Notes under the pieces: generated by a model
Databases searched by the model: none
Told to the model about the DNA's origin: nothing
The model's input: only the letters and a program-made list of their open reading frames with translations
Source: an uncultured Verrucomicrobiota bacterium
GTDB lineage: Bacteria > Verrucomicrobiota > Kiritimatiellia > CAIKKV01 > CAITUY01
Direction of reading: 5' to 3'
Length of the DNA: 64,000 bases
Assembly: GCA_964508705.1 (NCBI GenBank)
Contig: CAZDUS010000001.1
Span: forward strand, 80,799 to 144,798
Shown: one piece after another, positions 35,433 to 58,905 of the stretch
How positions within the stretch are numbered: the first letter of the stretch is position 1
How the letters are laid out: each line of letters opens with the position of its first letter
Made by a program: the position numbers and the translations under genes

Positions 35433-35440
35433 ATGACTAC

Positions 35441-35463
35441 CCTGAACTCTAAATCCTGAACCC
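35441..35463 (+). repeat. 7-nt-periodic spacer (CCTGAAC TCTAAAT CCTGAAC) between wecB and the epimerase gene
   Basis: Read directly from the sequence. Confidence 0.55.
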
Positions 35464-35467
35464 TTTT

Positions 35468-36427: not shown

Positions 36428-36439
36428 TGGTGTAATTCT

Positions 36440-36463
36440 GGAGGGCCACGCTCCGTCGTGGCC
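36440..36463 (+). terminator. Hairpin GGAG GGCCACG-CTCCGT-CGTGGCC after the epimerase gene (repeat family 2)
   Basis: It has the same flank and loop as 31142-31165. The stem differs by a compensatory pair: AT..AT becomes AC..GT. Confidence 0.5.
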
Positions 36464-36484
36464 GTGTTTATAGGAGCAGCAGAA

Positions 36485-37600
36485 ATGAACGTACCGTTAC
36501 TAGACTTGAAGGCGCAGTATCAATCGATCCGAGGCGAAATCGACGCCGCTGTGGCCAAGGTGTTTGAATCCCAATACTTCATTCTCGGCCCCAGCGTCAA
36601 AGCCTGCGAAGAAGGCATCGCCACCTATTCCCGATGCCCCCACGCCATCGGCGTCTCCTCCGGAACCGACGCCCTGCTCCTCGCTCTCATGGCCGAGGGG
36701 ATCGGACCCGGCGACGAAGTCATCACCTCGCCCTACACTTTCTTTGCCACCGCCGGTTCCGTCGCCCGTCTCGGTGCCCGTCCCGTCTTTGTGGATATCG
36801 AACCCGTCGCCTTCAACATCGACGTCTCAAAAATCGAGGCCGCCATCACCCCGAAAACCCGCGCCATCATGCCCGTCCACCTCTACGGACAAATGGCGGA
36901 CATGGACCCCATCATGGCGATCGCCAAACGCCACAAGCTGGCCGTCATTGAGGATGCCTGCCAATCCATCGGCGCCGAGTACAAGGGCCGCCGCGCCGGA
37001 TCCATCGGCACCTATGGCTGTTTCTCGTTCTTCCCCTCCAAGAACCTCGGCGGTGCGGGTGACGGCGGCGCCATCACCTGTCTCGACAAGGATCTCGCCA
37101 CAAAACTCGCCATCCTGCGCGTCCACGGCATGGAACCCAAGTACTTCCATCACATGCTGGGCGGCAACTTCCGGCTGGACGCCCTGCAGGCCGCCGTCGT
37201 CTCCGTCAAACTGAACCACCTTGACACATGGACCCAAAAGCGACAGGACAACGCCGCGCGCTATGACCGCCTCTTTGCCGCCGCCAACCTCGATGCCGCC
37301 GGAGTCAAGCGCCCTGCCACAATCATGTCCCGCCATGTTTTCAACCAATACGTCATCCGCACACCGCGCCGGGACGAACTGCGCGCCTTCCTGCAATCTC
37401 GGGACATCGGCGTCGAAGTCTACTACCCGCTCCCTCTGCACCTGCAGGAATGCTTCGCCTATCTCGGCCACAAAAAGGGCGATTTCCCGGAAAGCGAACG
37501 CGCCGCCCTGGAAACCCTCGCCCTGCCCATCTATCCGGAACTCTCCAACGCCCAGGCCGACTGGGTCGTCACAAGCATCAAGGATTATTTCAGCAAGTAA
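36485..37600 (+). CDS. DegT/DnrJ/EryC1/StrS-family sugar aminotransferase
   Basis: The start is at ATG 36485 ([12 protein letters not shown]). The PLP-lysine context FFPSKNLG is present. Confidence 0.9.
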
Positions 37601-37621
37601 CCTGACAAGGAGGCCGTTACC

Positions 37622-38932
37622 ATGGACTACAAAACAAATCTAATCCGCAAACTCGACAAGAAGTCAGCCGTCATCGGAATCGTGGGGCTTGGTTATGTCG
37701 GACTCCCCTTGATGTTGCGATTCATCGAGGAAGGTTACAAGGTGTTGGGCATTGATATCGACCCGGTCAAGGTCAAGATGCTGTCCGCCGGCAAAAGCTA
37801 TATCAAGCACATCTCCTCCGGCGCTTTGCGGCACGCCCGCGATACCGGATTCGAGGCCACCACCGATTTCTCCAAGGCTCGCAAGGCAGACGCCCTGATC
37901 ATCTGCGTTCCCACCCCGCTCGACCAGCACCGCGAGCCCGACCTGAGTTTTGTCGTCGGCACCGTCGAATCGCTCATCCCCCATATCCGCGCCGGACAGA
38001 TCATGTCGCTGGAAAGCACCACCTATCCCGGCACCACGGACGAAGAGCTCGTCCCGAGGATCGCAAAGCGCGGCTTCACCATCGGCAAGGATTACTTCGT
38101 CGTCTTCTCGCCCGAGCGCGAGGATCCGGGCAACCCGAAATTCAGCACCCGCTCCATCCCCAAGGTCTGCGGTGGCGTCACCCCTCCCTGTCGCGATATC
38201 GGCGTGGCCTTGTACGGCAAGGTCATCGACAAGGTCGTCCCCGTCACCTCAACACGCGTGGCGGAAATGACCAAGTTACTGGAAAACATCCACCGCTCCG
38301 TGAACATCGGGTTGGTCAACGAAATGAAAATCGTGGCCGACCGCATGGGTATCGACATCCACGAAGTCATCGCCGCGGCCTCCACCAAGCCCTTCGGTTT
38401 CGTTCCCTACCAACCCGGCCCCGGCCTCGGCGGCCATTGCATTCCAATCGACCCCTTCTATCTGACGTGGAAGGCGCGCGAATACGGTGTCCACACCCGC
38501 TTCATTGAACTGGCTGGCGAGGTGAACAGCGGCATGCCGGAATGGGTCATCGGAAAACTCGCTGAAGCCCTGAATGAACGCGGGCGCTCAGTCAAGAACA
38601 GCCGCATCCTTGTTCTTGGCATCTCCTACAAGAAAGATGTGGATGACCCCCGCGAATCCCCCTCCGTGGTCCTTCTGGAGTTGCTCCGCAAGCGCGGTGC
38701 CCGATATGCCTATTCCGATCCCTATTTCCCAAGCTTCCCGAAAATGCGCGAACATCACTTCACGTTGAAAAGCGTCTCGCTAAACCCGCGGGTCATCGCG
38801 TCCTACGACGCCATCCTGATCGCCACCAACCATTCGTCATTCGATTACAAACTGTTGAAAAAGCACGCTAAGTTGATCGTGGATACGCGGGGCGTTTATC
38901 TCAAGCCTGCCCGCAACATTGTCAAAGCCTGA
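37622..38932 (+). CDS. UDP-N-acetyl-hexosamine 6-dehydrogenase (WbpA/WecC-like nucleotide-sugar dehydrogenase)
   Basis: 436 aa with [11 protein letters not shown] and [11 protein letters not shown] (catalytic Cys). Confidence 0.88.
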
Positions 38933-38948: not shown

Positions 38949-39386
38949 TCACACCACCATCACAAAGAGCGCAACGATAAGCCCACCGATCACACCGCAA
39001 GCCATGGACAATAATCCGGTGCGACAGCGCGGCGGACGTGGATGCATGTGGCGTAACGTCAAAAAGGAAATCACAGCGGAAATCAATAACGCTGTTGGAA
39101 CCGACCCCGCCAAGGCCGCCAGCAACACGGAGCCTAAACAATCCATCCCCGCGCCAACATAACACACGGAGCCATCCGTCGTCGTGAAGAGCCAGCGCCC
39201 CATCCATGTCCCGATCAATAATCCACCAATGATGCCTATCATGAAGGCAATCAGGGAGAGGCCAACGCTTCGCTTGCAAAACCACCCGGCGGCACCCCCG
39301 GTCACGGCTCCAGCCGCCATGGCAGTGATCAATGCCACTTCAACCAGTGACAAACCCTCAGCACCTGCATGTAACGGTAATGGCAT
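38949..39386 (-). CDS. Small polytopic membrane protein, unknown function
   Basis: 145 aa with four Gly/Ala-rich hydrophobic segments. I recognise no family. Confidence 0.45.
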   Translation of the reverse strand: MPLPLHAGAEGLSLVEVALITAMAAGAVTGGAAGWFCKRSVGLSLIAFMIGIIGGLLIGTWMGRWLFTTTDGSVCYVGAGMDCLGSVLLAALAGSVPTALLISAVISFLTLRHMHPRPPRCRTGLLSMACGVIGGLIVALFVMVV

Positions 39387-39480: not shown

Positions 39481-40698
39481 CTACACCCCGTATCGCCCGT
39501 GCCGCTGAATCGCCGCCATCAACAGCCGCATGCCTGTTAGCCGACTGCCATTATTAACGGACCCCGCCGTCCCGAATCGCAACCCGCGCTTCCCCTTCGC
39601 TTGCTCAAAATCCCTCAGGAACTCGGCCACCATGTTGGCCTCCTCATTCCGACTGAAGGTAAACGGCGCCAACTGTCCATCAATCACGGCATCCGGACAA
39701 TGCTCCCGGATCTCACGCACGGTCAAGGTCGGACCGAAGTTCACGCCTTTCAGCTTCAATTCCGAAAGCTGTGGAAGCAAATGTCCCATGGCGGAATCAC
39801 TGTGCTGGTAACGACGATCCCCCGGTTCCGGCGCATAACGCCCCATTACTTCCCGGTGAATGGGCATCGCGAACAGCTCATACATTTCCGTGTTGAATAG
39901 ACAGCAATTGTCATCCCACCAACCCCACCCGCGTTGTTTAGGATTGACCCCCGTGTAGTCCGCCTCCACGTCAAGCACCCGGGCTCTCTCCAAAATGGCG
40001 CGCCGAATCACATCGCCAAAACGCAGGAACAACCCCTGATCATCGTAAAACAACAGCAACAGGTTTTCCGCCCCGTACACTGATGTCGCAAACGTGCAGG
40101 GGCCCCTCTGCTTCCGATAAATCGGCACATCGCAGCCCAGCCCCACGAGTCGCCGCTTCTCCTCTTCCCAGTTCGCAGGCAACATGAACTCCCTGAGATT
40201 TTCCAGCCGCCGCTCAACCCGGTCCAACAATGCCGAAAGTTCCTCGGGCGTATTTGCCGACTGCTTCAGCCACCAGGACCCTGTGGTTCCGCCCTCCCAC
40301 ACGTTCTCAGCCTCGAAAATATCATTCAGCCCCTTAACCGTTGGCCACTTCCTTGACTGATCCGCCAACGCCTCGCTGATCAACCGACGCCCTACAATTT
40401 TCTCCGATAAGTCATTGTACTTCCGCTTAATATCCAGCGCCCACGCCTCGTCACCGTGATAAAACCGCCAGAAGTCAACCGGTATCCCCAACTCATCATA
40501 CACACACTCGTCCGTGCATATCGCATACAGGGGAACCTGCGCTATATCCTTGCCGAACGCATTCTTGAACCCCACATCCTGATCTTTCCAGAATTGCGCC
40601 AAATCCACCGGCGCCAAGCCTTTGTTGGCCGCCGTGTCCGCCAGCAACTGATCCACCAACTTACGATGTTCAACCGGTGCCATTTCATACGCGTCCAT
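39481..40698 (-). CDS. Hypothetical protein, possibly uroporphyrinogen-decarboxylase-like (URO-D/MtaA superfamily) barrel
   Basis: 405 aa with a strong RBS (AGGAGGAAGCCT before the ATG). The C-terminal pattern (HSDSAMGHLLP...GVNFGP...IDGQLAP...GSVNNG) resembles URO-D-family proteins. It is confidently coding, but the product is uncertain. Confidence 0.55.
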   Translation of the reverse strand: MDAYEMAPVEHRKLVDQLLADTAANKGLAPVDLAQFWKDQDVGFKNAFGKDIAQVPLYAICTDECVYDELGIPVDFWRFYHGDEAWALDIKRKYNDLSEKIVGRRLISEALADQSRKWPTVKGLNDIFEAENVWEGGTTGSWWLKQSANTPEELSALLDRVERRLENLREFMLPANWEEEKRRLVGLGCDVPIYRKQRGPCTFATSVYGAENLLLLFYDDQGLFLRFGDVIRRAILERARVLDVEADYTGVNPKQRGWGWWDDNCCLFNTEMYELFAMPIHREVMGRYAPEPGDRRYQHSDSAMGHLLPQLSELKLKGVNFGPTLTVREIREHCPDAVIDGQLAPFTFSRNEEANMVAEFLRDFEQAKGKRGLRFGTAGSVNNGSRLTGMRLLMAAIQRHGRYGV

Positions 40699-40806: not shown

Positions 40807-41715
40807 ATGTCATTATTTGATTCATCCTATATCGACGCCAAGTTCAACCCGACCTCGGACAGTCACCCGGCACCTGCCTTGATGAATCACCCCACGGCTG
40901 GAAAATTCCATCTGACCAACATCATTCTGTTTGAAAAGCGAGTCGGCCCTTCAAAAATTGGCGAGCACCAGCATCCCGTTTACCACCTCGTTTATTTCGT
41001 AGAGGGGGAGAACGAATTCTTGCTTGAAGGCGAAAGAACGCAGGCCAGGCGCGGCACCTGCATACTCTCCGGCCCTGACGAAACCCACTCCTTCCTCCCC
41101 CTCAAGGCGGGGCAAACCGTCCATCACGCCATCACGTTTACTTTTGCACCTCTGAAAAACACTCCCTCGTGGGCGGACTTGCTCTCGCATTACACAGGCT
41201 ACACGCTGAAACAGGCTCCCACGGTATTTGAAATTCCAGAAGCCGCTTTTGTAAACCTGACGCCGCTATGGGCTTCCCTGCGCGCCGCGCTATCACTCCG
41301 GGGCCCGGCAGCCAACCAGCGGATTCACTTCGGGGTATTGCAATTGTTCGCGTTCATCGCCGACCTTCTCGCTGAGCAACAGCGCCAAACACTCTCCAAA
41401 CCCAGAACCCCCGAAACCATTGCCCGGGATTTTCTGGATTCACATTATGGCGTCAAAATCACCTTGGTTGAACTCGCCCGCCAGTCAAAAGTCAGTCCTG
41501 CTCACCTGAGTCGCGCCTTCAAGCGACGCTACGGCACGTCACCCATTCAATACCGCGACGCCCTGCGAATGAACGCCGCCAAAAATCTGCTTCTCCATAG
41601 CGATCTGCTGATCAAGGAAATTGCCTACCAACTCTCCTATCCCGACCTCTTCACTTTTTCCAAGGCCTTCCGCCGCTACCACCATTGCGCCCCCAGCGCC
41701 TTTCGTTACAAATAA
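40807..41715 (+). CDS. AraC-family transcriptional regulator (cupin sensor + HTH)
   Basis: 302 aa with C-terminal VSPAHLSRAFKRRYGTSPIQYR...FSKAFRRYH. It is divergent from the 39481-40698 gene. Confidence 0.9.
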   Translation: MSLFDSSYIDAKFNPTSDSHPAPALMNHPTAGKFHLTNIILFEKRVGPSKIGEHQHPVYHLVYFVEGENEFLLEGERTQARRGTCILSGPDETHSFLPLKAGQTVHHAITFTFAPLKNTPSWADLLSHYTGYTLKQAPTVFEIPEAAFVNLTPLWASLRAALSLRGPAANQRIHFGVLQLFAFIADLLAEQQRQTLSKPRTPETIARDFLDSHYGVKITLVELARQSKVSPAHLSRAFKRRYGTSPIQYRDALRMNAAKNLLLHSDLLIKEIAYQLSYPDLFTFSKAFRRYHHCAPSAFRYK

Positions 41716-41934
41716 CCGCGCCCGCCTTGCCGTTTCTCGACGCCCTGCCGAATCCCCGTTACCAGGAGTTATGCACTTCTCCCCTGAATTGGAGCCACCG
41801 TCGGAGTTCATCCTGCTTGCGCTTCCTACCCCATTCTGACATATTTGTTGTTTAGGAATGCGGCTTTTGGTCGGCCAAATGGAGTATGCCCCTTGCCGTC
41901 GGAAGACAATTTCTTGTCCACATTATAGAAAATC

Positions 41935-42666
41935 ATGGACATTACTCTTTCATTGAGACATCCGATACTGCCGCACGGTGATCCACCTGTCTTTGAACGC
42001 AAGTTCGTAGGGGAACCCTCAATGCTGGCGTTCACTTTGAATTGGCTTCAACACGTCTGTATCCCTGATTCGACTCATACTGAGGCCGTCATCATGAGCC
42101 TTTATTACGACACACCCGGGTTGGCTTCGTATTTTGAAAAACTGGATGGAGATACTCAAAAAACCAAATATCGCCTCCGCTGGTACCTTCCCGATAATTC
42201 ACCCGATGCCGATTCCTATTTCGCCTATATGGAAATTAAAAGCAAACTGGGAGACGGCAGGAATAAGGTTCGGACACGGCTTACAGCAAATCGGCGCGTA
42301 CTGCATTCAGCCGATGTCGAGCATCCATGGTTCATGGACGCTCTTCATGAAGCCAACCGGATTCTTAACCGCCCCATGGACGCCAGCTTGATGCCTATGG
42401 CTGTCATTCATTACCGGCGGTATCGCTTTATTTGCCCGGAAACTCTGGCCAGCATCAGTCTTGACTCGGAAATTTCTGTCGACCGTTATAACACGTCCCG
42501 TTTAACTCCGGTGGAGCCACTCGATATTCCTGCCCTGGTGCTGGAAATCAAGGATCAGAAACGGTGTAATCCGGCTTGGCTAACCCCGTTGCTCGAAGCC
42601 GGATTTGTCCGGCAGGGATTTTCAAAATATGCCGAATGTATCAACAGAATGATGTGGGAAGGATAA
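41935..42666 (+). CDS. VTC-domain (polyphosphate-polymerase-like triphosphate tunnel) protein
   Basis: 243 aa with the tunnel-strand signature series FERKF, SLYYDT, KYRLRWY, YMEIKSK, KVRTRL, YRRYRF, ISLDSEI, VLEIKDQ and FSKYAEC. Confidence 0.85.
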   Translation: MDITLSLRHPILPHGDPPVFERKFVGEPSMLAFTLNWLQHVCIPDSTHTEAVIMSLYYDTPGLASYFEKLDGDTQKTKYRLRWYLPDNSPDADSYFAYMEIKSKLGDGRNKVRTRLTANRRVLHSADVEHPWFMDALHEANRILNRPMDASLMPMAVIHYRRYRFICPETLASISLDSEISVDRYNTSRLTPVEPLDIPALVLEIKDQKRCNPAWLTPLLEAGFVRQGFSKYAECINRMMWEG

Positions 42667-42671
42667 GAAAG

Positions 42672-43358
42672 ATGAGTATTTTGACCAAACTGCAAGACGC
42701 CGCTTCAATTCAAGACCTGTCAGCCAAAATGGACCCCGTGCTGTTTGTGGTGGCACTTCTCGTGTCACTGCTCTCATCTTTTTTTGCCGGCTGGTTATAC
42801 ACAACCTTTTGTCAACGCAAGGGATCAGGCAGTCAGATCAACCGGGCATTCCCGCTTCTGGGAGTGTCGGTAACAACCTTGTTCATCTGCGTTCAGATTT
42901 CACTCCCGCTCTCTCTGGGCCTTTTGGGAGCGTTATCCATCATCCGCTTCCGGACGCCGGTCAAGGAGCCTGAAGAAACTGGATTTATCATGATGGTCAT
43001 TGCCGGAGCGATTACCTGCGCGACGTTCAACTTCCAATTCCTGATCGTTCTATATGTCGTGGGCTTTGTGGCGCTTTATTTTCAGAATCGCGGCTGGGCC
43101 TGGCGAAAAGCCGCCGACGGAATGCTGGTGGTTGCGCTTAGCGATGAACAAGCCCGTCTTCACCAGCCAGGTCTTCAACAGTGCGTCGCCGCAGAATCAC
43201 GCCGGGTTTCTCTCGAAAGCATGACCAGCAAAGATGGCCTGACCAGTCTGCACTATTCCTTCAGCGGTCTCAAAACCGGCACCGGTGAGTTGGCTGATAA
43301 ACTCAGATCGATTGCGAACCTCGCGACGGTAAATGTCTTCTTTAACAGACCGGGATGA
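42672..43358 (+). CDS. DUF4956 membrane protein
   Basis: The start is at ATG 42672, 5 nt after the VTC stop. It has four TM segments and the family hallmark LGALSIIRFRTPVKEPEE. Confidence 0.85.
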   Translation: MSILTKLQDAASIQDLSAKMDPVLFVVALLVSLLSSFFAGWLYTTFCQRKGSGSQINRAFPLLGVSVTTLFICVQISLPLSLGLLGALSIIRFRTPVKEPEETGFIMMVIAGAITCATFNFQFLIVLYVVGFVALYFQNRGWAWRKAADGMLVVALSDEQARLHQPGLQQCVAAESRRVSLESMTSKDGLTSLHYSFSGLKTGTGELADKLRSIANLATVNVFFNRPG

Positions 43359-43390
43359 ATGCTCCTTCAATCCAGGCAGGATAAATCGAC

Positions 43391-46267
43391 ATGCGCTCAC
43401 ACATTCATAAACGCAGCTTGATCTTGTGGGCGGTCATGTTCGGCTTGCTTGCCGCCTTCATAATGTTTGGCCCAATGCTGGCTGAGACAATACGGCATTC
43501 AGAATCCCATTATCGCTCAAAAATAGGAAACGCCTTGCGTGTGGCGGGCGTTGAAGCCTACTGGTCGATGGACGAGTTGGTGCTTTCCGAACAGGTCCAC
43601 AACGCGCTCATAACAACCGACGGAACCCGCCGGGTTCCGGGCGTAAAGGGATATGCCCGTGAGTTTATTTCCGAAGCCAATGGATACATTCGGACCGATC
43701 TGCCATATAATATTGCTCGCCCACCATTTACCTTCTCCTGCTGGCTGAAGTTCACAGACAACATTCCGGATCAAAGCATCTGCAAGTACCTCGTAACGAA
43801 AAACGGTATCCTGACAACAGCCTTCTCTCATCAGGCATCTCCGCTGGGTTGGCCAATTGATATCCATAATCGGTTTTTCCATGTGGCGCTGACCCTTGAC
43901 GGCTCCGCCAAAACGTCCAACGTCGTCGGACGTCTATATATAGATGGGAAACGCATAGCAGAGGCCCCGCTTGGATCCGTTTCAACGGATGGTCACCTGC
44001 TGTGTTTTGGTGAGGATCGCTGGACGCCACCGGCCCAATTTTCGCTTGATGAAGTAAGCCTATGGAATCGCTCGTTGTCGCCGGATGAAATCAGCCGTTT
44101 ATGCAAGCCCGGGCAAAGCATCCGCGCCAGAGGTGTCGCCATCCGCCGACTCAAATTGGCCGCCTGTGAATGGCTAGGCGAACTTATTCATTCAATAGAC
44201 ACGGTAGCGGATTTGTTTAACCCCACCCTTAATCCCGGCCGACTGAACAGGATCGGCCTTGCCGATTTTTCACTCGTACTCTCTAAACGGGACATCAAGG
44301 CGTTCAATCGATATGTCAATGATAGGCTTGATGCGGGAATTTCAGTGTATGGGGTCTCGGAAAAACGCTGTATTTCCGTCCTTCGTGACGGTGCACTTGG
44401 TTCAGCAAGCATGCGTGTGCTGGGGTCACGTCAACGCTTTAAATACGGCCATCCGAAACCAAGTTATATCGTCACTGTGGACAATGATGCTGATAATGCT
44501 GGAATTGAAAAATGGCTGTTTCAAACCCCGGAGGAATCCCCGTTCCTCCTCCAGTTACTTGCTTCACAACTGGCGGAAGCCGTTCGCTACCCCGTGCAGG
44601 CTCCCGAATTATGCACGTTGAATATCAACGGGGGACAACCGGGGCTATACCTGTTTGAGAAGCTTCAAGTTGAACGCAGCCTTCCTTCGGTATCAGCCAC
44701 CAATGGATGGAAGCAATGCCTGAAGGTTCTCCCTGTATGCTCCTCCGAAATCTTGCGAACATTTGACTCCCTGGCAGATCAATATGAACCCGTTTTCACC
44801 AGTGATAAGAAGAGCCCACTGAATCGTCGGGAAATGGCATGGGCCATAGAGCGGCAGCGAAAACAATTACTCGCCTTTCTCGAGAAGCCTGATGTTTGGT
44901 CCAATGAGATGCTGGTCAAACGGGTCTGTGACTATATCGCGCCGGAATTGTTTCTTGGACAAAATCTGATGGCGTGCAGTATCCGCACCGCGCTGGACTT
45001 TAGCGCGACGAATATCAACGGGGTGGCGATTTCATTTCAAAGCCTTTCACCAGAACTGCTGGATAACCATGGCCGTATCTTGGAGGGTCTGGACAGCCCT
45101 GTGGACCGGAACGTGTCGGTGCAAGTCACCGCGAGACGTGGCGGAGTGGAAATGAACAAGACGTTGCGGTTCACAATAGCAGGCAGTGGGCGGCGTCTCC
45201 CCGTTCTCGATATCCAGACCGCCGGATCCTTTACGGAGTTTGAACCGGCTCAATGCCATGTGGGCATGCTCGAAGAAAATGGTCGGCGGCATAATCTGCC
45301 CTGCGGCGAAATTCATTTGCGCGGAAACACAGCTTTGGTAAAGGCAAAAAAATCGTATTACGAAATCGAGTTCGACAAACCCCACGGAATTGACGGGCTC
45401 GTCACGTCAAGACATCTGCTTCTTACTTCCATGTATCGGGATCCGACGCTAATGCGGGACAAGCTGGCTTATGACCTCTTTCGAAGCTTTTCCAAGCCCG
45501 GTAAACCCCGCTACGCGCCACATTCCCGTTTTGTTGAGGTTGTTTTGAATGGCGAATATGTCGGGGTTTACGAGATGACAGACCGCGTTGATTCCGAGCT
45601 ATTGGGTTTTGCTGCCAAGTTCGATGACCCGACAGCTCCAGCTGTTCTGTATAAGGCCGTCGGCGAGGGCGCAACTTTTGAACGCCGCAGTCAGGCCAAC
45701 TATGTCCAAAAACTTCCCCGATGGAAAAAAGGATCCTATTGGGGCCCCTATAACGACTTGATGGATTTTGTGGGACACTCGGACAGCAACACCTTCGCGC
45801 GTCAGGTTGAACAATTGATAGACGTGGATAACATCATCGACTTCGAATTATTGCTCAGTCTCAGTTGCAATGGCGAGGGCCGGAATTTCAACCTCTTCAT
45901 TGCTCGTAATGGCGGCCCGGGTGAAAAATTTTTCCTTGTTCCGTGGGATTACGACATGGCGTTTTGGAAGCCGGTGAAAGCAAATAACTACCTGATTGAC
46001 CGGTTACATCGGGACCTGCCCGGCTATACGACGCGCTTGAAGGCCCGCTGGAAAGAGTTGAGGGAAGGCCCGCTGGAAAATGGCCGCGTAATGGCCTTGT
46101 TGGATGACCTGTACGCCCAGCTCGGCAGGGGAGGCGCCGAACGGAATTTCAATCGCTGGCCTCATCCGAATTATCCCTATGAACCCAATGTTGAATTCCT
46201 ACGCTCGTGGTTGCAGACACGCCTGGCAAAGATAGACGCAATCATTGCGGCGACTCCTTCCAACTGA
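43391..46267 (+). CDS. Membrane-anchored LamG-domain + CotH-family atypical kinase protein
   Basis: 958 aa with an N-terminal anchor (LILWAVMFGLLAAFIMF). The LamG/ConA-like module reads FTFSCWLKF...HVALTLDG...LYIDGKRIAE...LDEVSLWNRSLSPDEI. The C-terminal CotH pattern reads YRDPTLMRDKLAYDLFRS...VEVVLNGEYVGVYEMTDRVD...NFNLFIARN...LVPWDYDMAF. Confidence 0.85.
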   Translation: MRSHIHKRSLILWAVMFGLLAAFIMFGPMLAETIRHSESHYRSKIGNALRVAGVEAYWSMDELVLSEQVHNALITTDGTRRVPGVKGYAREFISEANGYIRTDLPYNIARPPFTFSCWLKFTDNIPDQSICKYLVTKNGILTTAFSHQASPLGWPIDIHNRFFHVALTLDGSAKTSNVVGRLYIDGKRIAEAPLGSVSTDGHLLCFGEDRWTPPAQFSLDEVSLWNRSLSPDEISRLCKPGQSIRARGVAIRRLKLAACEWLGELIHSIDTVADLFNPTLNPGRLNRIGLADFSLVLSKRDIKAFNRYVNDRLDAGISVYGVSEKRCISVLRDGALGSASMRVLGSRQRFKYGHPKPSYIVTVDNDADNAGIEKWLFQTPEESPFLLQLLASQLAEAVRYPVQAPELCTLNINGGQPGLYLFEKLQVERSLPSVSATNGWKQCLKVLPVCSSEILRTFDSLADQYEPVFTSDKKSPLNRREMAWAIERQRKQLLAFLEKPDVWSNEMLVKRVCDYIAPELFLGQNLMACSIRTALDFSATNINGVAISFQSLSPELLDNHGRILEGLDSPVDRNVSVQVTARRGGVEMNKTLRFTIAGSGRRLPVLDIQTAGSFTEFEPAQCHVGMLEENGRRHNLPCGEIHLRGNTALVKAKKSYYEIEFDKPHGIDGLVTSRHLLLTSMYRDPTLMRDKLAYDLFRSFSKPGKPRYAPHSRFVEVVLNGEYVGVYEMTDRVDSELLGFAAKFDDPTAPAVLYKAVGEGATFERRSQANYVQKLPRWKKGSYWGPYNDLMDFVGHSDSNTFARQVEQLIDVDNIIDFELLLSLSCNGEGRNFNLFIARNGGPGEKFFLVPWDYDMAFWKPVKANNYLIDRLHRDLPGYTTRLKARWKELREGPLENGRVMALLDDLYAQLGRGGAERNFNRWPHPNYPYEPNVEFLRSWLQTRLAKIDAIIAATPSN

Positions 46268-46276
46268 ATGTCTGAC

Positions 46277-46930
46277 TCACTGTTTTGACACCACTGCAGT
46301 AGCATCACCGGCAACGGATCGAGGACGGAAACAGGCGCTGCCTATGCTGCCCCCCAAGGCCAGCAGGGCCCCTATGCTGCCAACCACAAATCCTATAGCT
46401 TGACCAGCGCGCCCCACGCTGACAACAGCCAGCATGACTTGAAATAACAGATGCAGCATCATGCCCACCGCAATCAGCACCCACACCCGACGATCCCGCG
46501 GCACAAACAGCGCCGTAAACCAAACTGACAGCAGAATAATCACCGATAGAACAACCCCGGCCCATTGCAACTTTGCTGGCAGCCAGGAATCGTTTAGCAA
46601 TAGCAACGTGACGCACAACGCCATCAACGTGAGTCCGCCCATGGTATGTACCGCCACATGTAGCCACGGCCAGGCACCCCGCTTACCTGAATAACCCCTC
46701 AGTGCCGAGAACACAACCAGAAGAGCCCAGACATAGGGATAGGTAATGACAAACGAAGCCCCACAAAAAGCCGCAGCCTCTCCGGCACTTTCGGACGACA
46801 ACACCGCACCCGCCATCCACTGCATCATACCAAAGGGGGCGTGCATGAACCCCATCGGCATGAAAAATGAAAAAAGGAACAGACCTCCGCCCAGGACCAA
46901 CGCGATGCGACTCAAGACCAACCCGATCAT
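46277..46930 (-). CDS. Polytopic membrane protein, unknown function
   Basis: 217 aa with about 6 TM helices. Its start overlaps the upstream stop (ATGA), which implies co-translation with the phosphodiester glycosidase gene. Confidence 0.6.
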   Translation of the reverse strand: MIGLVLSRIALVLGGGLFLFSFFMPMGFMHAPFGMMQWMAGAVLSSESAGEAAAFCGASFVITYPYVWALLVVFSALRGYSGKRGAWPWLHVAVHTMGGLTLMALCVTLLLLNDSWLPAKLQWAGVVLSVIILLSVWFTALFVPRDRRVWVLIAVGMMLHLLFQVMLAVVSVGRAGQAIGFVVGSIGALLALGGSIGSACFRPRSVAGDATAVVSKQ

Positions 46931-48162
46931 TGTGCGCCTCCCTCACCCAACGTCCCGGCATCTTGCGGCACCAGGATCGCCAGACCGTTACACATCGCGC
47001 GCGGCCCCCCACGACCCCGAATGACATAGTCATTCTCAAAAATCGTGGCTGAATCACCTCCGTCAAACATGATGGCATCGGACGACCCGAGACCAATCAT
47101 CAAATCCGCTAAGTCCGGCAATTCCAATCCCACACTTTCTTTGCATCGCCCCCTGACAACAAGAAGATACACTCGCCGCCCGTCACGACTGATGCCAACC
47201 ACGGCACGTGGATGAGGCCGCTTAAGGTAGGCGGCTTCTGCCGCGCAAATACCGTCGGCTTTCAATTCAATACTGACCTTTCCATCACGAACGATCCGTG
47301 GTCCTCCGCCAACAGCCTCTCTGGCGTGCGGAACCAAATCGGTGCGAATTTGCACTGCGAGCCCTTCCCGAATACCCGTCGGCAGTACCGGATCACCCGT
47401 CTTCCCTCCGCAGGCAAGGACCAGGCCGGTGCGCGGCAGCGGTACGGGCTTGCCATCCGTGAAAAGTCTTGTTACCCGTCCGGTCACCACTCCACCGACC
47501 AAAGGTAAGTCAGCGTCGATCAAGACTGCACCCTGCGGGGCTGGGGCTTCACTGACTTCGCGCGTGTTCGAGTATAGGTGCATGCCCGGCAGACAGCCAC
47601 GCTTGGGACGGTTCATGTCGCAAACATCGAGCCAGACGGGATCATCGCCAATCCGAACCTGTAGCTTCGCTTGCGGATTGGCAATCAGGGGCCGCCCCCC
47701 GGGATCTATCATAAACGCGGAACGCCCTTGCGGTGAATACACCAGACGGCCATCCAAAAGTTGGATCCCCCATGGTCCGGCCATGCCGTTGCCGAAATAG
47801 TCACCGCTGATTGCCGCCGCCACGCGCCGTTCGGGAGTGGTGATTGCCCGCACCATTTCCGCTACAGTACCGCGTCCTAATTTAGAATCCGGCCGGAGAT
47901 GCAAAACTCCCAAACTCAATCCTCCCTGGTCAAGATTCGCGCGTACGACATGATAAGAAAGGGGTACCGGTTGCGTCCGGAAATAATCAGCCCGTTCCAC
48001 GCCAGGCGCCAGCGGTTCATACACTAGCTTGGGGTTGATCAGATCCGGGTCCGATTGCCGTTCTTTATTCGTACGGGAACAACTGGCTACAGCCAACACC
48101 AGCAGGCCCAGCGCCAGAAAAGCCGGCCACCGCTCTAAACGATCCTGCAAGAACAAGCTCAT
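46927..48162 (-). CDS. Lipoprotein, phosphodiester glycosidase family (NAGPA 'uncovering enzyme'-like)
   Basis: It has a lipobox (LAVASC). Family motifs are GDYFGNGMAGPWGIQLLDG, AVGGGPRIVRDG, PRAVVGISRDGRRVYLLVV and AIMFDGGDS. Confidence 0.8.
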   Translation of the reverse strand: MSLFLQDRLERWPAFLALGLLVLAVASCSRTNKERQSDPDLINPKLVYEPLAPGVERADYFRTQPVPLSYHVVRANLDQGGLSLGVLHLRPDSKLGRGTVAEMVRAITTPERRVAAAISGDYFGNGMAGPWGIQLLDGRLVYSPQGRSAFMIDPGGRPLIANPQAKLQVRIGDDPVWLDVCDMNRPKRGCLPGMHLYSNTREVSEAPAPQGAVLIDADLPLVGGVVTGRVTRLFTDGKPVPLPRTGLVLACGGKTGDPVLPTGIREGLAVQIRTDLVPHAREAVGGGPRIVRDGKVSIELKADGICAAEAAYLKRPHPRAVVGISRDGRRVYLLVVRGRCKESVGLELPDLADLMIGLGSSDAIMFDGGDSATIFENDYVIRGRGGPRAMCNGLAILVPQDAGTLGEGGAQ

Positions 48163-48344: not shown

Positions 48345-50171
48345 TCAATGCCCTGCTTTCAACGGAATAAATTCAAGTCGAGACAACCAAAGACGCGCGT
48401 CCCAACCTGTGACTCGTATTTCCACTTCCGTTTCTTTTCTCAACAATAATTCAACCTCACATTCCCGCAACATCCAGTCGGCATTCTCCACTGGCGGTAT
48501 TTCTTTCTCAACGATCACCGCTCCTTGCTCTTGGGCATTATGAAGGCTCAATACACCCCATTTACCCGATTTTGTTTTTCGTGGAGCCGCTGCTCGATAA
48601 TACAGCACGGCACGGTACACCCCGGGCGGCATAACTCTTGTTTTCCGGTAAACCAGTATTACCGGCGCAAGCGAAGCGTCACCTTCCCAATACCTTACCG
48701 GCCCGCAAGGGCTATCCATATCCCGCCCCGCTCGCGCCAGCGCGCTTACCATCCAGAACGGCGCGCGCCGGACCTTATCCAAGGCCTCACGATTTGCCGA
48801 CGTATCATATCCACGCTCCAACACAACAAAGAGATCATCAAGATACCTTACCCCAACACGACCATCCCGGAGTTCATCCAGCAACCGCCCGTCCATCCGT
48901 CGAGGCAAATCCTGCAGTCGCATCCAAATCACATCATACCTGTCCCGCGACTCGACGTAGGCATCCCAATCCCAGACCCGTTGGCGATTGCCGACCATTC
49001 CGCACAAATCGGTATCGGTCAAGACGGCCTTATCTTTCGGAATACACTGGGACACCCGGAAGGCAATCTGATGCATGGGGGACGGTCGCTGATAACAACG
49101 CTTTGAACCGCCCCCCTGCAAAATATAACCCCGATTCATGAAATGAACCATAAGCGTTACGATTACTGATGCCACCGCCGCTATCCATACCCGCCTTGCC
49201 GACTGTCGCCTTTCTTGGGGTTCGCGCCACGCCTCCATAATAACAAGCGGCAAAACCGTCATCACCGGTGCCGCATAGATAGCCCACAAACGCTGCTGAT
49301 TCGCATAGACACTCAACAACGCTGGCGCCAGCCCTCCCAGTAACATCAGAGCCGGTCGCCAAATACGCTTGAATGGAGCAAGCGCCACCAAGGGAAGAAG
49401 CGTCAACCATAGACCTTCCAGTCGTCGCAGCACCGCGCCTTGAGTAACCTCTGGTGCACCAATGTAATTCGCGCGCCGGGAAAAAAAGGATATCTCGTTA
49501 ATCCACGGATATATGCAGAATATCGCCGCTACCCCATATCCCACTGCCGCCGCCGCATAAAGGTAACCCGCCCGCCACCCTTGCTGATAGGCCATCACGG
49601 CCAAAACGGGCGCAACCACCAGAAACGCATCCTCCCGTAATCCCAGCAAGAGAGCCATCGGAATAATCGTCATCCCGCGCCGTCGGCGGCAACACTCATA
49701 TAACCATGGTAACAGTAGAAAATAGGGTCCCACCGTGTGAAACTCGCTCAGCATCACGCCTTGTGTAAACGGGTACCCGATAAAGAAAAACACAAGGCTC
49801 GCCTTCACCGGCAACGGCATTTCATTCCGTGAAGCACTTACCCACAACAGCGCCCCGCCAGAAACCAACATCACCCACTGCAAAAGCGACAACAAAAAAG
49901 GGTGATCCCACAAACGAAACAATGGGCCCAGTAGCGCTAAAGAGAACGACAAATGCGTATAAAGATAGTTTTCACCAGTCTCAAACTGAAAAAGCCTTCC
50001 TTGCCCGGAATTCCATATCATGGACGTATAGCGTGCATAATCCGCTAGAACAAATTTTCCAGACAGAAAAGCGTTGATACACCCGTTTAATATCCCAAAA
50101 GCAGCCACCCCGGTCAGTGCGATCACACAAGCGATCCACAATACGCCCATCATTTCGTAACACTTCTTCAT
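48345..50171 (-). CDS. DUF2079-like polytopic membrane protein (putative GT-C-type glycosyltransferase) with soluble C-terminal domain
   Basis: The N-terminal pattern ADYARYTSMIWNSGQGRLF...YTHLSFSLALLGPLF fits DUF2079. It has about 11 TM helices followed by about 250 soluble residues. The start is taken at ATG 50171; the tracked TTG is at 50177. Confidence 0.7.
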   Translation of the reverse strand: MKKCYEMMGVLWIACVIALTGVAAFGILNGCINAFLSGKFVLADYARYTSMIWNSGQGRLFQFETGENYLYTHLSFSLALLGPLFRLWDHPFLLSLLQWVMLVSGGALLWVSASRNEMPLPVKASLVFFFIGYPFTQGVMLSEFHTVGPYFLLLPWLYECCRRRRGMTIIPMALLLGLREDAFLVVAPVLAVMAYQQGWRAGYLYAAAAVGYGVAAIFCIYPWINEISFFSRRANYIGAPEVTQGAVLRRLEGLWLTLLPLVALAPFKRIWRPALMLLGGLAPALLSVYANQQRLWAIYAAPVMTVLPLVIMEAWREPQERRQSARRVWIAAVASVIVTLMVHFMNRGYILQGGGSKRCYQRPSPMHQIAFRVSQCIPKDKAVLTDTDLCGMVGNRQRVWDWDAYVESRDRYDVIWMRLQDLPRRMDGRLLDELRDGRVGVRYLDDLFVVLERGYDTSANREALDKVRRAPFWMVSALARAGRDMDSPCGPVRYWEGDASLAPVILVYRKTRVMPPGVYRAVLYYRAAAPRKTKSGKWGVLSLHNAQEQGAVIVEKEIPPVENADWMLRECEVELLLRKETEVEIRVTGWDARLWLSRLEFIPLKAGH

Positions 50172-50247
50172 ACTCAAAAATCCGCCAACCCGGCGAGAAG
50201 CAATCCAATAGCTACTTTTTGCATCATCTCATTTGATACGGCAGCAT

Positions 50248-51045
50248 TCACGCTCGCGGTTTACCACGTCGCAGTGCAACGCTTGGTTGCGCGGTCTCTT
50301 CGATCCACCTCAAACACTCGTTGGACCAATCGAAAGGCGTTCCGAGGCCAAGCCCATGCCTCCCCTTGTGATAGATGTGCAGCTCAAAGGGTATGCTATG
50401 TTTCCGCAGGGCGGTCGCAAACATAATGCTGTTCTCGAGGGGCACCGTAGCGTCTTCTCCCGTGTGCCAGAGAAAACACGGCGGAGTCTCTGCGGAGACA
50501 TGTTTGTGGCATGAAAGCTCATCAAGTAGCTCCGGAGCTGGATGCTCCCCGGCGAGATTGCGTATGGAGCCTTCGTGAGCATGTGGGCCGCAGGACGCGA
50601 TCACAGGATAGCATAGAACGCCAAAACTTGGTCGCAAAGGAATCTTGCTCTCGTATCGTTGCCACGCAACAAGTGTGTGCGCGGCCAAATGGCCACCCGC
50701 CGAAGATCCCATGACACCCAGCTTGGAGGGGTCAACTGCAAACTCTGCAGAGCGAGACCTCACCACAGAAATAGCAGCAAGGGCATCTTCCAACATCTCC
50801 GGATGGCGGTGGCCTTCTGAACCAAGCCTGTACTTCACGACAAAGCAGGCAATACCGGCACTGCAGAGAAACTGGGCATAACCCTCTCCCTCGTGTGCAG
50901 CCAAGCGTCCATAACCACCCCCTGGGAAGATGAGAACGCCAACCCCGCTGGGATCACTCTCTGGCAGCCAGCATTCGATTTGCGGTGACGGGTTTGTTCT
51001 GCCTGAATCCAGTACCCCTCGTATTGTGTTCATTTTCTCCTGCAC
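50248..51045 (-). CDS. Alpha/beta hydrolase (carbohydrate/acetyl esterase-like)
   Basis: Supporting motifs are FPGGGY, GSSAGGHLA (nucleophile elbow), and a late His in HKGRHGLG. The start is GTG 51045 or ATG 51033. Confidence 0.85.
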   Translation of the reverse strand: MQEKMNTIRGVLDSGRTNPSPQIECWLPESDPSGVGVLIFPGGGYGRLAAHEGEGYAQFLCSAGIACFVVKYRLGSEGHRHPEMLEDALAAISVVRSRSAEFAVDPSKLGVMGSSAGGHLAAHTLVAWQRYESKIPLRPSFGVLCYPVIASCGPHAHEGSIRNLAGEHPAPELLDELSCHKHVSAETPPCFLWHTGEDATVPLENSIMFATALRKHSIPFELHIYHKGRHGLGLGTPFDWSNECLRWIEETAQPSVALRRGKPRA

Positions 51046-51345: not shown

Positions 51346-53028
51346 TCACGGGATCGGGAATCTCAGCGCCAGCGCCTGCACTTCGCAGCGGGTCTTCTCC
51401 AGCCGCTTCTCATCACCCTGATGCTTGACCGCATCCACAATCCACTGCCCCAACAACGTCATCTCGGCATCCTTCAAGCCCCGCGTGGTCACCGCAGGCG
51501 TCCCGATCCGAATCCCCGACGTCACCGCCGGCGGCTTGGTGTCAAACGGAATCGCGTTCTTGTTGACCACAATCCCCGCCTTCTCCAGCGCCGTCGAAGC
51601 ATCCTTGCCTGTACTGCCAATGCCGGTCAAATCCACCAGCATCAAATGATTCTCCGTACCGCCCGACACAATCCGCATTCCATGCTTGGAAAGATAATCA
51701 GCCAGCAATCGCGCATTCGTCACCACTTGCTTCTGGTATTTCTTGAACTCCGGCGTGGCGGCTTCCTTGAAGCACACCGCCTTGGCGGCGATAGTATGCA
51801 TCAGCGGACCGCCCTGCAATCCGGGGAACACCTGCTTGTCAATATCCTGCGCATAGGCAGCGCGGCACAGGATCATTCCACTCCGCGGCCCGCGCAATGT
51901 CTTGTGTGTAGTGGTCGTCACAAAATCACTGTAGGGAACAGGATTCGGATGCACACCGGCGGCAACCAATCCGGCAATGTGCGCCATATCAACCAGTAAT
52001 TTCGCGCCAACGCTGTCGGCGATCCTGCGCAACCGCTCAAAATCCAGAACCCGCGGATAGGCGCTCGCCCCGGCCACCAGCATCTTCGGATTGTGTTGTT
52101 TCGCCAGCGCCTCCACTTCATCGTAATCAATCAACTCCGTCTTCTGGTTGACCCCGTAGGAGACAAAGTTGAATAACCGCCCCGAGAAATTCACCTTATG
52201 CCCGTGCGTCAGATGTCCGCCGTGCGCCAGACTCATCGCCAGCACCGTATCGCCGGGCTTCAGCATCGCGAAATACACCGCCATATTGGCAGAGCTTCCG
52301 CAATGTGGCTGGACATTGACGTGATCCGCGCCAAACAGCGCCTTGGCCCGGTCAATCGCCAATCGCTCCACCACGTCCACAAATTCACAGCCATTGTAAT
52401 AACGCTTACCCGGATAGCCTTCCGCATACTTGTTCGTCATCAGCGAACCCTGCGCCTCACGCACTGCGCGGCTGGCATAGTTCTCGGAGGCAATCAGGTC
52501 GAGCGTCTTCATTTCCCGATCTTCCTCGCCGCGGAGCGCCTCATAGGTCTCCCGATCCACCAGTCCGACCGTCGCCATCTCCACCGCCGCGCCGCCCATG
52601 GTACCCATCTTGTCCACGCGCCGTTGATGCCGCGCTTCTCCTATGAACTTGGCTTCAAGCCACGCTTTGACAATCTCCTCCACCTTCCCCGTGGCGCTGA
52701 TATCGCTACCCAACACAAGCACATTGGCGTTGTTGTGCACCCGCGCGGCCTGCCCCATGTCCGGCGTTAAACACAGCGCCGCACGCACTCGCGGAAACTT
52801 GTTCGCCGATATGCTCATCCCGATCCCGGTCCGGCAAATCAGGATCCCCTGATCCACCAGCCCTTCGGACACCATAACCGCAACCGTGCGGGCATAGTCG
52901 GGATAATCCACCGCATCGCTGCTGTAACAGCCCACATCCTCCACGGTCACACCGCGCCCTTTCAGCCATGCCGCCAATTTCGCCTTCAACTCAAATCCGC
53001 CGTGATCCGCACCAATCGCTATGTTCAT
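51346..53028 (-). CDS. glyA: Fusion of ribose-5-phosphate isomerase B with serine hydroxymethyltransferase
   Basis: Single 560-codon ORF. The first about 148 aa are RpiB ([22 protein letters not shown]). The remainder is SHMT ([19 protein letters not shown] with the PLP lysine). Confidence 0.9.
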
Positions 53029-57135: not shown

Positions 57136-57266
57136 CGCTATTGGCCACTGAACGTGGGCCACTGAACGCAGTGCAAACGCATCTAAATTCTCATATTTCT
57201 TGCTATGCTGGCTCCAGAAGGGCAGCTTAAAACGATGTCACCAAGGGGGTATTCACATTTTTGAGT

Positions 57267-57366
57267 ACGGCGGCTTGACGCCGTTTTCCAAGGCGCGGCT
57301 TGACGCGCCCTGTCCAGGTGTGCGGTCCGTCAAGCCGGTCCACACAAAGCGACGTCAAGCCGTCGC
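57267..57366. repeat. Array of four 18-nt hairpins with variable 6-bp stems and conserved hexaloops (GCTTGA x2, then TCAAGC x2)
   Basis: 57267-57284 reads ACGGCG-GCTTGA-CGCCGT. 57292-57309 reads GGCGCG-GCTTGA-CGCGCC. 57324-57341 reads GGTCCG-TCAAGC-CGGTCC (5 of 6 pairs). 57349-57366 reads GCGACG-TCAAGC-CGTCGC. Confidence 0.7.
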
Positions 57367-57526
57367 ACTCCAAATTTCAGTCAATTTGAGCCAATATTGC
57401 CAGAGAACTGTGAGTTTGGATACGTTTGCCCTATCGCCCCCTCCAAGCCTATCTACAGCCAATCTGCCCGCTTGTCCCTGCTTTTCCCTGTGTTACTATG
57501 AACCTCAACAGGGAGGCTTGCAGAAC

Positions 57527-58897: not shown

Positions 58898-58905
58898 GTG
58901 CTTCC

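Follow-up and report, generated by a model that had tools for sequence, protein, structure and literature searches.

The 64,000-nucleotide window analysed here, a stretch of contig CAZDUS010000001.1 from an uncultured Verrucomicrobiota bacterium of the class Kiritimatiellia, carries three adjacent plus-strand genes encoding a VTC-domain protein, a DUF4956 membrane protein and a LamG-CotH protein (Table 1). The same order and tight spacing are kept in dozens of species across phyla, and on that ground the three genes very probably act as one functional unit. The best-supported reading of the sequences is that of a single trans-membrane unit whose chemistry would run from a cytoplasmic nucleoside triphosphate to a kinase-fold enzyme outside. 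We propose tentatively, at a little short of even confidence, that in this widespread cassette a dedicated membrane protein connects a phosphoanhydride enzyme of the cytoplasm with a kinase-fold enzyme outside it.

Conservation of the cassette was surveyed with a DUF4956 alignment as the seed for a scan of one genome per GTDB species, a scan blind to both VTC and CotH, which gave at least 567 confirmed loci or species genomes. Linkage was counted in the best 80 of these at least 567 DUF4956 loci, ranked by similarity to the window protein. Open reading frames (ORFs) in the surveyed loci (labelled L001, L009, L056 and so on, like the loci of relatives) were called in the analysis itself and searched with jackhmmer profiles grown from the window proteins. 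In 76 of the 80 loci (73 of the 76 with room for it) the cassette has a same-strand VTC gene directly upstream of DUF4956; a same-strand CotH gene follows downstream in 70 (60 of the 62 that have room, or 61 of 62 counting either side). The exceptions are contig ends, frameshifts and CotH-first order variants, together with L045, where there is no CotH within 10 kb on either side. The median implied gap from the VTC stop to the DUF4956 start is 5 nt (interquartile range -4 to 20). In the window this gap is likewise 5 nt (GAAAG) and that between DUF4956 and CotH is 32 nt, values that agree with the three tightly spaced plus-strand genes of the preliminary description. The linkage, which that description had raised for a gene-order survey, is conserved and far above chance. 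In the converse direction, that of partners given a VTC gene, the evidence consists of one distant VTC-seeded locus (L090, 28% identity), which has the order CotH-VTC-DUF4956, and of close relatives found by protein identity, which show the same arrangement as the window cassette.

The division into a cytoplasmic VTC protein, a membrane-embedded DUF4956 and an exported CotH, first drawn from the window alone, is kept across the surveyed loci: an N-terminal hydrophobic segment is predicted in 69 of 73 CotH ORFs and is absent from 87 of 88 VTC proteins. By record title the carriers, mostly of environmental and gut-associated phyla, belong to the Kiritimatiellia, Verrucomicrobiota, Lentisphaerota (Victivallales/Lentisphaerales), Chlamydiota, Planctomycetota, Acidobacteriota (Vicinamibacterales, Thermoanaerobaculia), Spirochaetota, Flavobacteriaceae, Desulfobacterales, Gemmatimonadaceae, Rokubacteria and others. 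In five loci (L013, L037, L066, L072 and L079) there is another CotH gene, or another complete VTC-DUF4956 pair, no more than 10 kb away; in L037 the two pairs have opposite orientation.

The trio had been described as lacking an experimentally defined function. It has indeed never been explained, but it is already in print (PMC2879425, PMC7112168 and, with knockouts, PMC12345266). The NELoc-2 locus of Clostridium perfringens contains a VTC domain, a "tubulin/FtsZ" protein and CotH beside a glycosyltransferase and a deacetylase (PMC2879425) and has since been re-annotated (PMC11677781); its membrane location, its length of about 222-226 aa and its position suggest that the "tubulin/FtsZ" protein corresponds to DUF4956. 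Genes for a polyphosphate polymerase, CotH, DUF4956 and DUF4832 adjoin pel operons of streptococci, clostridia and bifidobacteria (PMC7112168). In Streptococcus intermedius, deletion of DUF4956 (SIR_1592) or CotH (SIR_1594) halves aggregation in sputum medium, while Pel is up in the former mutant and down in the latter (PMC12345266). These published knockout phenotypes are mild. The authors of that study could not find synteny of the trio outside pel loci (PMC12345266); our survey shows the opposite for Gram-negative lineages and for those of the Planctomycetota-Verrucomicrobiota-Chlamydiota (PVC) group.

No pel-type genes occur within about 15 kb of the cassette in the window (neighbours were scanned from 26 to 55 kb), and when the two nearest ORFs on either side of the cassette were scanned with Pfam in 38 loci, neither pel genes nor a universal partner came up. 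A linkage to pel was accordingly dropped. The cassette is a self-contained unit. Like the pel-associated cluster of S. intermedius (SIR_1592/1593/1594) and NELoc-2, it has the three families contiguous. In the pel-associated cluster CotH is predicted to be secreted and DUF4956 is described as four transmembrane helices plus ACT. Unlike that cluster, the window copy lacks contiguity with pelDEADAFG and has the order VTC-DUF4956-CotH; its CotH is N-terminally anchored, carries LamG and Ig-like domains rather than FN3, with Glu in place of the catalytic Asp; and its companions are a NAGPA phosphodiester-glycosidase and DUF2079 instead of DUF4832. It is a PVC-type, pel-independent variant, marked by a LamG-CotH protein with Glu829 and by its NAGPA and DUF2079 companions. 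Irrespective of mechanism, the self-contained unit has at least 567 carriers among the species genomes, and its occurrence goes beyond the pel loci to which PMC12345266 confines it.

We infer each biochemical step of the proposed synthesis, export and use of polyphosphate from sequences and predicted structures. The soluble VTC enzyme, working docked on a DUF4956 oligomer, would make polyphosphate or a short phosphoanhydride chain from nucleoside triphosphate at the inner face of the membrane. A cluster at the cytoplasmic face of DUF4956 (R58, R92-F-R94, K98 and E99-P-E-E102) could take the chain and pass it across the membrane, and the periplasmic LamG-CotH protein would then act on a glycan or protein of the surface, with the exported polymer serving as its phosphoryl donor or substrate and with LamG or other accessory modules selecting the target. 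In the lineage of the window, the product would probably be further processed by the NAGPA lipoprotein and the polytopic DUF2079/PMT_2 enzyme. Such a model would explain why a Vtc4-like cytoplasmic enzyme is tied to an exported one, why DUF4956 is the most constrained partner, with conserved charges at the inner face, and how a kinase is supplied in the periplasm, which is generally held to be without ATP. The model agrees with every test made in silico, but its parts differ in strength. Synthesis of polyphosphate by the VTC protein is, on residues and model, slightly favoured; translocation by DUF4956, argued by analogy, is conceivable but doubtful; and consumption or attachment of polyphosphate by CotH is unlikely. 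Equally unlikely is the fullest form of the reading, a split bacterial counterpart of VTC in which a PPK-independent polymerase with its own translocon would deliver polyphosphate, and CotH would draw on it in place of ATP for the phosphorylation of an envelope glycan or protein, or would attach polyphosphate to such a target. Export of polyphosphate to CotH has been neither proposed nor tested in the searchable literature.

If true, the model would show how an exported kinase-fold enzyme obtains phosphoryl groups in an ATP-free compartment, would provide the first means known of driving phosphorylation outside the cytoplasm of bacteria, and would add a third, PPK-independent bacterial route to polyphosphate. 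It would also give a function to DUF4956, among the better conserved families without one (at least 4896 clusters). A 2026 preprint describes PPK-independent, PPX-resistant extracellular polyphosphate in the Bacillus cereus group, found in a ppk1 ppk2 mutant and with no known synthase (PMC13484657); the cassette could be a source for extracellular, end-protected polyphosphate of this kind. It thereby bears on an open question in polyphosphate biology.

DUF4956 is the most conserved of the trio. The window protein matches PF16316 with E 1.1e-10 (41.9 bits against a gathering cutoff of 30.6), and a profile search returned at least 4896 homologous clusters; among the matches listed, identity to the window protein is about 50% across phyla and the nearest cassette, from a Victivallales metagenome-assembled genome (MAG), reaches 68%. 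One homologue at 53% identity (P0201) carries the NCBI label of a Candidatus Methanoperedens MAG, which is archaeal and may reflect transfer or a binning error. A core of 26 residues is near-invariant: among 28 homologues, S77-LPLSLGLLGALSIIRFRTP(V/I)KEPEE-102 is essentially unchanged, as are G53, Q55, R58, T68 and Q75. Such strong conservation fits a conducting or catalytic role better than that of a simple anchor. The GALSIIRFR hallmark of the preliminary description is present at residues 86-94; the four transmembrane segments given there become four to five helices in an AlphaFold2 model (22-47, 56-74, 78-94, 100-117 and 121-146; predicted local distance difference test score, pLDDT, 79.6), followed by a C-terminal beta-alpha-beta-beta-alpha-beta domain. 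The positive-inside rule applied to loops 48-55 and 92-102, together with a presumed cytoplasmic location of the C-terminal domain, argues for an N-out/C-in topology, which would put the EPEE cluster, together with R58, R92, R94 and K98, on the cytoplasmic side of the membrane.

The strongest of the alternatives, although rather unlikely, concerns this protein. Rather than a channel, DUF4956 could be a membrane regulator of the MgtC kind whose ACT-like domain binds a ligand; the VTC protein would make or sense a cytoplasmic phosphoanhydride, the VTC-DUF4956 pair would signal to CotH or to polysaccharide output, and CotH would draw its phosphoryl donor from elsewhere or act before its export is complete. 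Foldseek matched the C-terminal domain of DUF4956 only, at E of about 1e-3, to ferredoxin/ACT-type folds that include CutA, ribosomal protein S6, ACT domains and the C-terminal domains of MgtC proteins (2lqj, 7qa5), and detected no transporter-like fold. The MgtC family has a similar layout, in which several membrane helices precede a small cytoplasmic domain of the ferredoxin/ACT type, and the layout of DUF4956 has already been likened to it (PMC12345266); the opposite changes of Pel in the S. intermedius DUF4956 and CotH mutants look regulatory. These fold matches are, however, generic and marginal, and Pfam MgtC (PF02308) has no match to DUF4956 at E up to 10, so that membership in the MgtC family was dropped. 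Conservation is moreover strongest in the membrane core and not in the ACT-like domain, and we know of no counterpart of the signature core in MgtC. A regulator would also leave unexplained the near-obligate tie of an exported kinase-fold protein to a cytoplasmic tunnel enzyme.

The VTC protein matches PF09359 with E 4.4e-26 and 92.3 bits (cutoff 23), and the match spans positions 4-234 of the 235 in the profile. The soluble tunnel protein that had been described from its motifs is borne out: FERKF lies at residues 20-24, VLEIKDQ at 202-208 and FSKYAEC at 229-235, hydropathy shows no hydrophobic segment, and the AlphaFold2 model (pLDDT 92.2, predicted template modelling score 0.87) consists mainly of long beta-strands. 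An exhaustive HMMER search found relatives in 1191 clusters at 50% identity, almost all stand-alone proteins of about 230 aa. An alignment of 65 homologues has 16 invariant columns (E21, K23, Y57, K78, R80, R82, Y84, E100, K102, K111, R162, D177, E204, K206, S230 and K231), and a profile of these homologues matches yeast Vtc4 (3g3q) with E 8.8e-13. Native Vtc4 numbering was taken as the chain numbering of 3g3q plus 185, since RLRWY then sits on R264/R266. All residues mapped in this way (Table 1) are identical to Vtc4, and the set of eight is invariant in the 65 homologues save Y160 (at least 90%); K23 was equated with Vtc4 K200 by its place on predicted strand beta1 (residues 20-26), with no alignment. 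Mutagenesis by Hothorn et al. in 2009 reportedly found K200, R264, R266, K281, R361, E426, S457 and K458 to be required in Vtc4. In a Foldseek search of the PDB with the model, the top 13 matches are all tunnel domains of Vtc4, Vtc3 or Vtc2 (E 3.5e-11 to 4e-9). These comparisons of sequence and model identify the window protein as a bona fide VTC-type tunnel domain with a Vtc4-like active site predicted to be intact, and they sustain the earlier proposal that its fold is that of the polyphosphate-making Vtc4.

It is possible, if improbable, that the VTC protein is instead a tunnel hydrolase or catalyses other chemistry (as a tripolyphosphatase, NTP triphosphohydrolase or cyclase) and that the cassette handles a small phosphorylated molecule. 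The superfamily is chemically diverse: YgiF (3e-7), AtTTM3, thiamine triphosphatase and the CYTH cyclases and triphosphatases (about 1e-6) are significant fold matches as well, yeast Vtc2 and Vtc3 share the fold yet are inactive, and the invariant beta1 E21-x-K23 resembles the hydrolase motif ExExK. Against this stand the full-length Pfam VTC match, the 13 Vtc structures that match about four orders of magnitude better than the best hydrolase, and the identity here of all residues reportedly found by mutagenesis to be needed in Vtc4, K200 by position only.

The eukaryotic VTC complex (Vtc4/Vtc3/Vtc1; 3g3q, 7ytj, 8i6v) is a natural analogy for synthesis coupled to translocation, in that a tunnel domain of the same Pfam family, fold and catalytic residues works next to a membrane partner. 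Unlike the eukaryotic proteins, the window VTC protein has neither an SPX domain nor DUF202-type transmembrane helices, its membrane partner is a separate DUF4956 gene with no detectable similarity to the VTC channel, the cassette has an obligate third part in the exported CotH, and the product would end up in the periplasm or at the cell surface and not in the vacuole. The preliminary description had seen in the pair a split-gene version of the eukaryotic channel, for which no homology was found: the membrane part of DUF4956 has no Foldseek match to any solved structure, 7ytj and 8i6v included, and a profile search of PDB sequences returned noise only. DUF4956 as a counterpart of the VTC channel is an analogy without homology.

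The CotH protein matches its description as a 958-aa protein with an N-terminal anchor, a LamG module and, at its C-terminus, a CotH domain, predicted from Pfam and hydropathy to lie outside the cytoplasm; its single hydrophobic segment is predicted to be an N-in signal anchor, with the remainder of the protein exported. Accessory domains vary among cassette CotH proteins, with LamG and aBig_2 in PVC bacteria and formylglycine-generating-enzyme (FGE), lamin-tail or CHB_HEX_C/Fn3_assoc domains elsewhere. CotH had been said to be known only as a Bacillus spore protein, which is wrong, as it also occurs as Mucorales invasins, as pel-linked CotH and as Sfz6. The C-terminal domain aligns with B. 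cereus CotH (5jd9) with E 5.6e-9. According to the account in PMC7821199, which cites Nguyen et al. 2016, the B. subtilis CotH kinase is inactivated by D228Q and by D251A. The equivalent of D251 is the metal-binding D853 (PWDYD), present in 79 of 79 aligned cassette CotH sequences. The position of D228 holds Asp in 60 of 80 aligned cassette CotH rows; Glu is found there only in the window protein (Glu829), in copies of it from the same species and in L009, L010 (Victivallales) and L011, its nearest relatives, and one sister PVC subclade has Asn there with an inserted His-Asp/His-Glu about 8 residues downstream. Glu829 keeps a carboxylate, and the domain is on this sequence evidence probably active; yet it is not a strict match to the catalytic signature. 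The homologous Bacillus protein (5jd9/5jda) shares the D251-equivalent Asp and the catalytic-loop Asn and is a single domain of 362 aa that acts on CotB and CotG in an ATP-containing mother cell, whereas the window protein is exported, anchored, 958 aa long, equipped with a lectin-like domain and has Glu for Asp228.

CotH is a distant relative of Fam20C-type kinases of the secretory pathway (PMC7821199). The Fam20-type kinases are functional analogues that likewise have a kinase fold and modify secreted proteins or glycans outside the cytosol; unlike the proposed CotH, they use ATP imported into the Golgi lumen. To our knowledge no ATP import exists for the bacterial periplasm, and a different donor is proposed for this reason.

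Still less probable than a change of chemistry in the VTC protein is that the CotH module is a non-catalytic binder or scaffold, a pseudokinase or adhesin that recognises a glycan or exported polyphosphate. Its Glu829 stands where D228Q inactivates the B. subtilis enzyme, the sister PVC subclade has Asn at the same place, Mucorales CotH proteins are host-cell ligands, and a lectin-like LamG and an Ig-like module accompany the domain. However, the carboxylate is retained in Glu829, the inserted His-Asp/His-Glu of the Asn subclade could supply a base, most rows keep the Asp, and D853 (WDYD) is universal in the aligned sequences.

Several observations weigh against the proposed synthesis, export and use of polyphosphate. 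Bacterial VTC proteins have a Glu two residues ahead of the beta1 Lys (E21-x-K23), which resembles the ExExK motif of hydrolytic tunnel enzymes, and the searchable literature contains no biochemical data for any bacterial VTC-domain protein. The DUF4956 model is weakest (pLDDT 61-68) exactly at the invariant core, and DUF4956 as a homologue of the VTC channel or of a transporter had to be dropped on the PDB profile noise and the C-terminal-only Foldseek matches. Natural fusions of VTC to DUF4956, sought as Rosetta-stone evidence, did not turn up: two apparent ones, the 477-aa ORF of L054 and the split VTC of L048, were likewise dropped as frameshifts; in them the VTC profile halts at position 171 and restarts in another frame. 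The catalytic Asp of CotH is Glu829 in the window (CNGEGRNFN), and we know of no kinase-fold enzyme that uses polyphosphate. The survey covers the DUF4956 subfamily that fits two peptide patterns, ranked by similarity to the query. Deletion of the S. intermedius VTC gene (SIR_1593) has no reported phenotype, unlike that of its two partners (PMC12345266).

Chance adjacency, for example through an insertion of foreign DNA with no common function, has practically no probability left: the block is compositionally atypical (low GC3, no strand skew), but the survey, which finds the same order and spacing in dozens of species of many phyla, and the published occurrences refute it. The lower GC and discordant skew that had been noted hold up. 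The three genes have a GC content at third codon positions (GC3) of 0.52-0.59, compared with 0.69 +/- 0.06 for the window's remaining 40 genes, and their plus-strand GC skew is about 0 against about -0.2 elsewhere; the negative skew marks nearly all other window genes regardless of their orientation and is missing from the block. Low GC and missing skew are compatible with a fairly recent acquisition. Throughout the window (1-64000) third codon positions are C-rich on the plus strand whatever the gene orientation, with a coding GC3 skew of about -0.5 for plus-strand and about +0.4 for minus-strand genes. Genes without this skew lie at 26045-27853 (PEPCK), 31607-34027 (a hybrid histidine kinase), 41935-46267 (the cassette), 50248-51045, 57200-59646 and 62794-63792, and these skew-free islands may be recent insertions or inversions.

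Table 1. Features of the VTC-DUF4956-CotH cassette and its flanks in the 64,000-nt window.
Feature	Coordinates	Strand	Basis and remarks
AraC-family regulator	40807-41715	+	Pfam HTH_18, HTH_AraC, AraC_binding; directly 5' of the block, membership uncertain
Intergenic region, 219 nt, presumed operon promoter	41716-41934	+	Sole non-coding gap of notable size 5' of the block
VTC-domain (triphosphate tunnel) protein, 243 aa	41935-42666	+	Pfam; soluble, cytoplasmic; candidate polyphosphate polymerase
VTC protein = yeast Vtc4 residues			R80=R264, R82=R266, K102=K281, Y160=Y359, R162=R361, E204=E426, S230=S457, K231=K458
DUF4956 membrane protein, 228 aa	42672-43358	+	Pfam; start taken as the ATG that leaves a 5-nt gap
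DUF4956 near-invariant core SLPLSLGLLGALSIIRFRTPVKEPEE, residues 77-102	42900-42977	+	Homologue alignment
LamG-CotH protein, 958 aa, predicted membrane-anchored and extracytoplasmic	43391-46267	+	Pfam, hydropathy
Predicted signal anchor, residues 9-27	43415-43471	+	Hydropathy; single hydrophobic segment after a basic N-terminus
Laminin_G_3, residues 160-235	43868-44095	+	Pfam E 8.6e-12
aBig_2 (Ig-like), residues 530-596 of the CotH protein		+	Pfam, weak match
CotH kinase-like domain PF08757, residues 641-946	45311-46228	+	Pfam E 1.7e-45, profile 1-320 of 322
Glu829 codon	45875	+	Alignment position counting
Asp853 codon	45947	+	Alignment position counting
Six-helix membrane protein, 217 aa	46277-46930	-	Overlaps the NAGPA gene by 4 nt
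NAGPA phosphodiester-glycosidase lipoprotein	46927-48162	-	Pfam E 3.7e-25; lipobox LAVASC
DUF2079 polytopic membrane protein	48345-50177	-	Pfam E 1.1e-24

We infer a promoter for a three-gene operon in the intergenic region 41716-41934. A consensus scan of 41500-46700 placed no sigma-70-type site in that region; over the scanned interval it gave three sigma-70-type sites, and nothing among the promoter and terminator predictions rose above shuffled controls. The AraC-family protein upstream is a possible local regulator of the cassette. The family occurs at 2 loci only and is absent from the other surveyed loci; on a contig of the same species (L005) some gene, its identity unchecked, lies at the AraC position. 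NCBIfam has no model for the VTC, DUF4956 or CotH protein, and Rfam has no match in the window. Two further readings were dropped, that of a defence system on zero PADLOC matches among the six proteins searched, and that of plasmid carriage because a tblastn search of PLSDB found no DUF4956.

Downstream, the overlapping NAGPA and six-helix genes form a translationally coupled pair, which is convergent with the cassette here and divergent upstream of it in L003; NAGPA also occurs near the cassette in L009, L016 and L044. The counterpart of the DUF2079 neighbour in L009 is a 982-aa PMT_2 protein. The NAGPA pair and DUF2079/PMT_2 are lineage-specific companions of the cassette. PMT_2 is a mannosyltransferase family, and we take both DUF2079 and PMT_2 to belong to the GT-C glycosyltransferase-like fold class. 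Nucleotide-sugar genes lie upstream at 34278-38932 (UDP-GlcNAc 2-epimerase, NAD epimerase, DegT aminotransferase and UDP-sugar dehydrogenase). The neighbours vary, but those that recur in the 38 loci are envelope-related: GT2 (6/38) and, in a few each, PMT/PMT_2, GtrA and metallophosphoesterases. In loci of the Vicinamibacterales type, a Sulfatase-family (PF00884) protein of about 680 aa lies directly upstream of VTC-DUF4956. Whatever the mechanism, LamG, FGE, Sulfatase-family proteins, NAGPA and DUF2079/PMT_2 point to phospho- and sulfo-ester enzymes that act outside the cytoplasm on an envelope glycan, glycoconjugate or other envelope polymer.

Six of these loci (L051, L054, L055, L056, L073 and L086) have a four-gene unit that includes the Sulfatase-family protein and lies at about 7.1-12.9 kb in each. 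The CotH protein of L056, about 750 aa long, has a C-terminal FGE-sulfatase domain by Pfam, and those of the other five are similar in size. L055 is labelled Bifidobacteriaceae and looks identical to the Vicinamibacterales loci, so that its bin label may be wrong. In L001 and L002 a gene of 113 aa with a faint LMWPc match lies directly upstream of the VTC gene.

Two orphan genes sit between the nucleotide-sugar genes and the AraC regulator of the window, one encoding a 405-aa protein without a Pfam, NCBIfam or PADLOC match (39481-40698, minus strand) and one a hydrophobic 145-aa protein without a family match (38949-39386, minus strand). Farther out, ARAGORN called a 91-nt tRNA-Glu(ttc) at 60733-60823 on the minus strand, antisense inside dapB (60342-61151, plus strand); it lacks an Rfam tRNA match at gathering score and is therefore probably a false positive. 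The window also contains several unusual domain combinations, all on the minus strand. The 807-aa protein encoded at 11606-14029 has an HATPase_c domain, a pyridine-nucleotide-disulphide oxidoreductase domain and, at its C-terminus, rhodanese; it is odd in joining an ATPase of the histidine-kinase type to an enzyme resembling CoA-disulphide reductase. Sua5 (Sua5/YciO/YrdC) sequences occur twice, as an N-terminal fragment joined to a family-2 glycosyltransferase in a 794-aa protein (23044-25428) and as a full domain fused to a low-molecular-weight phosphatase domain (53047-54108). In the single 560-aa ORF at 51346-53028 a full serine hydroxymethyltransferase (residues 157-530) follows an RpiB (ribose-5-phosphate isomerase B)/LacAB domain (3-141), a fusion that is also found at full length in NCBI, JGI and Logan data.

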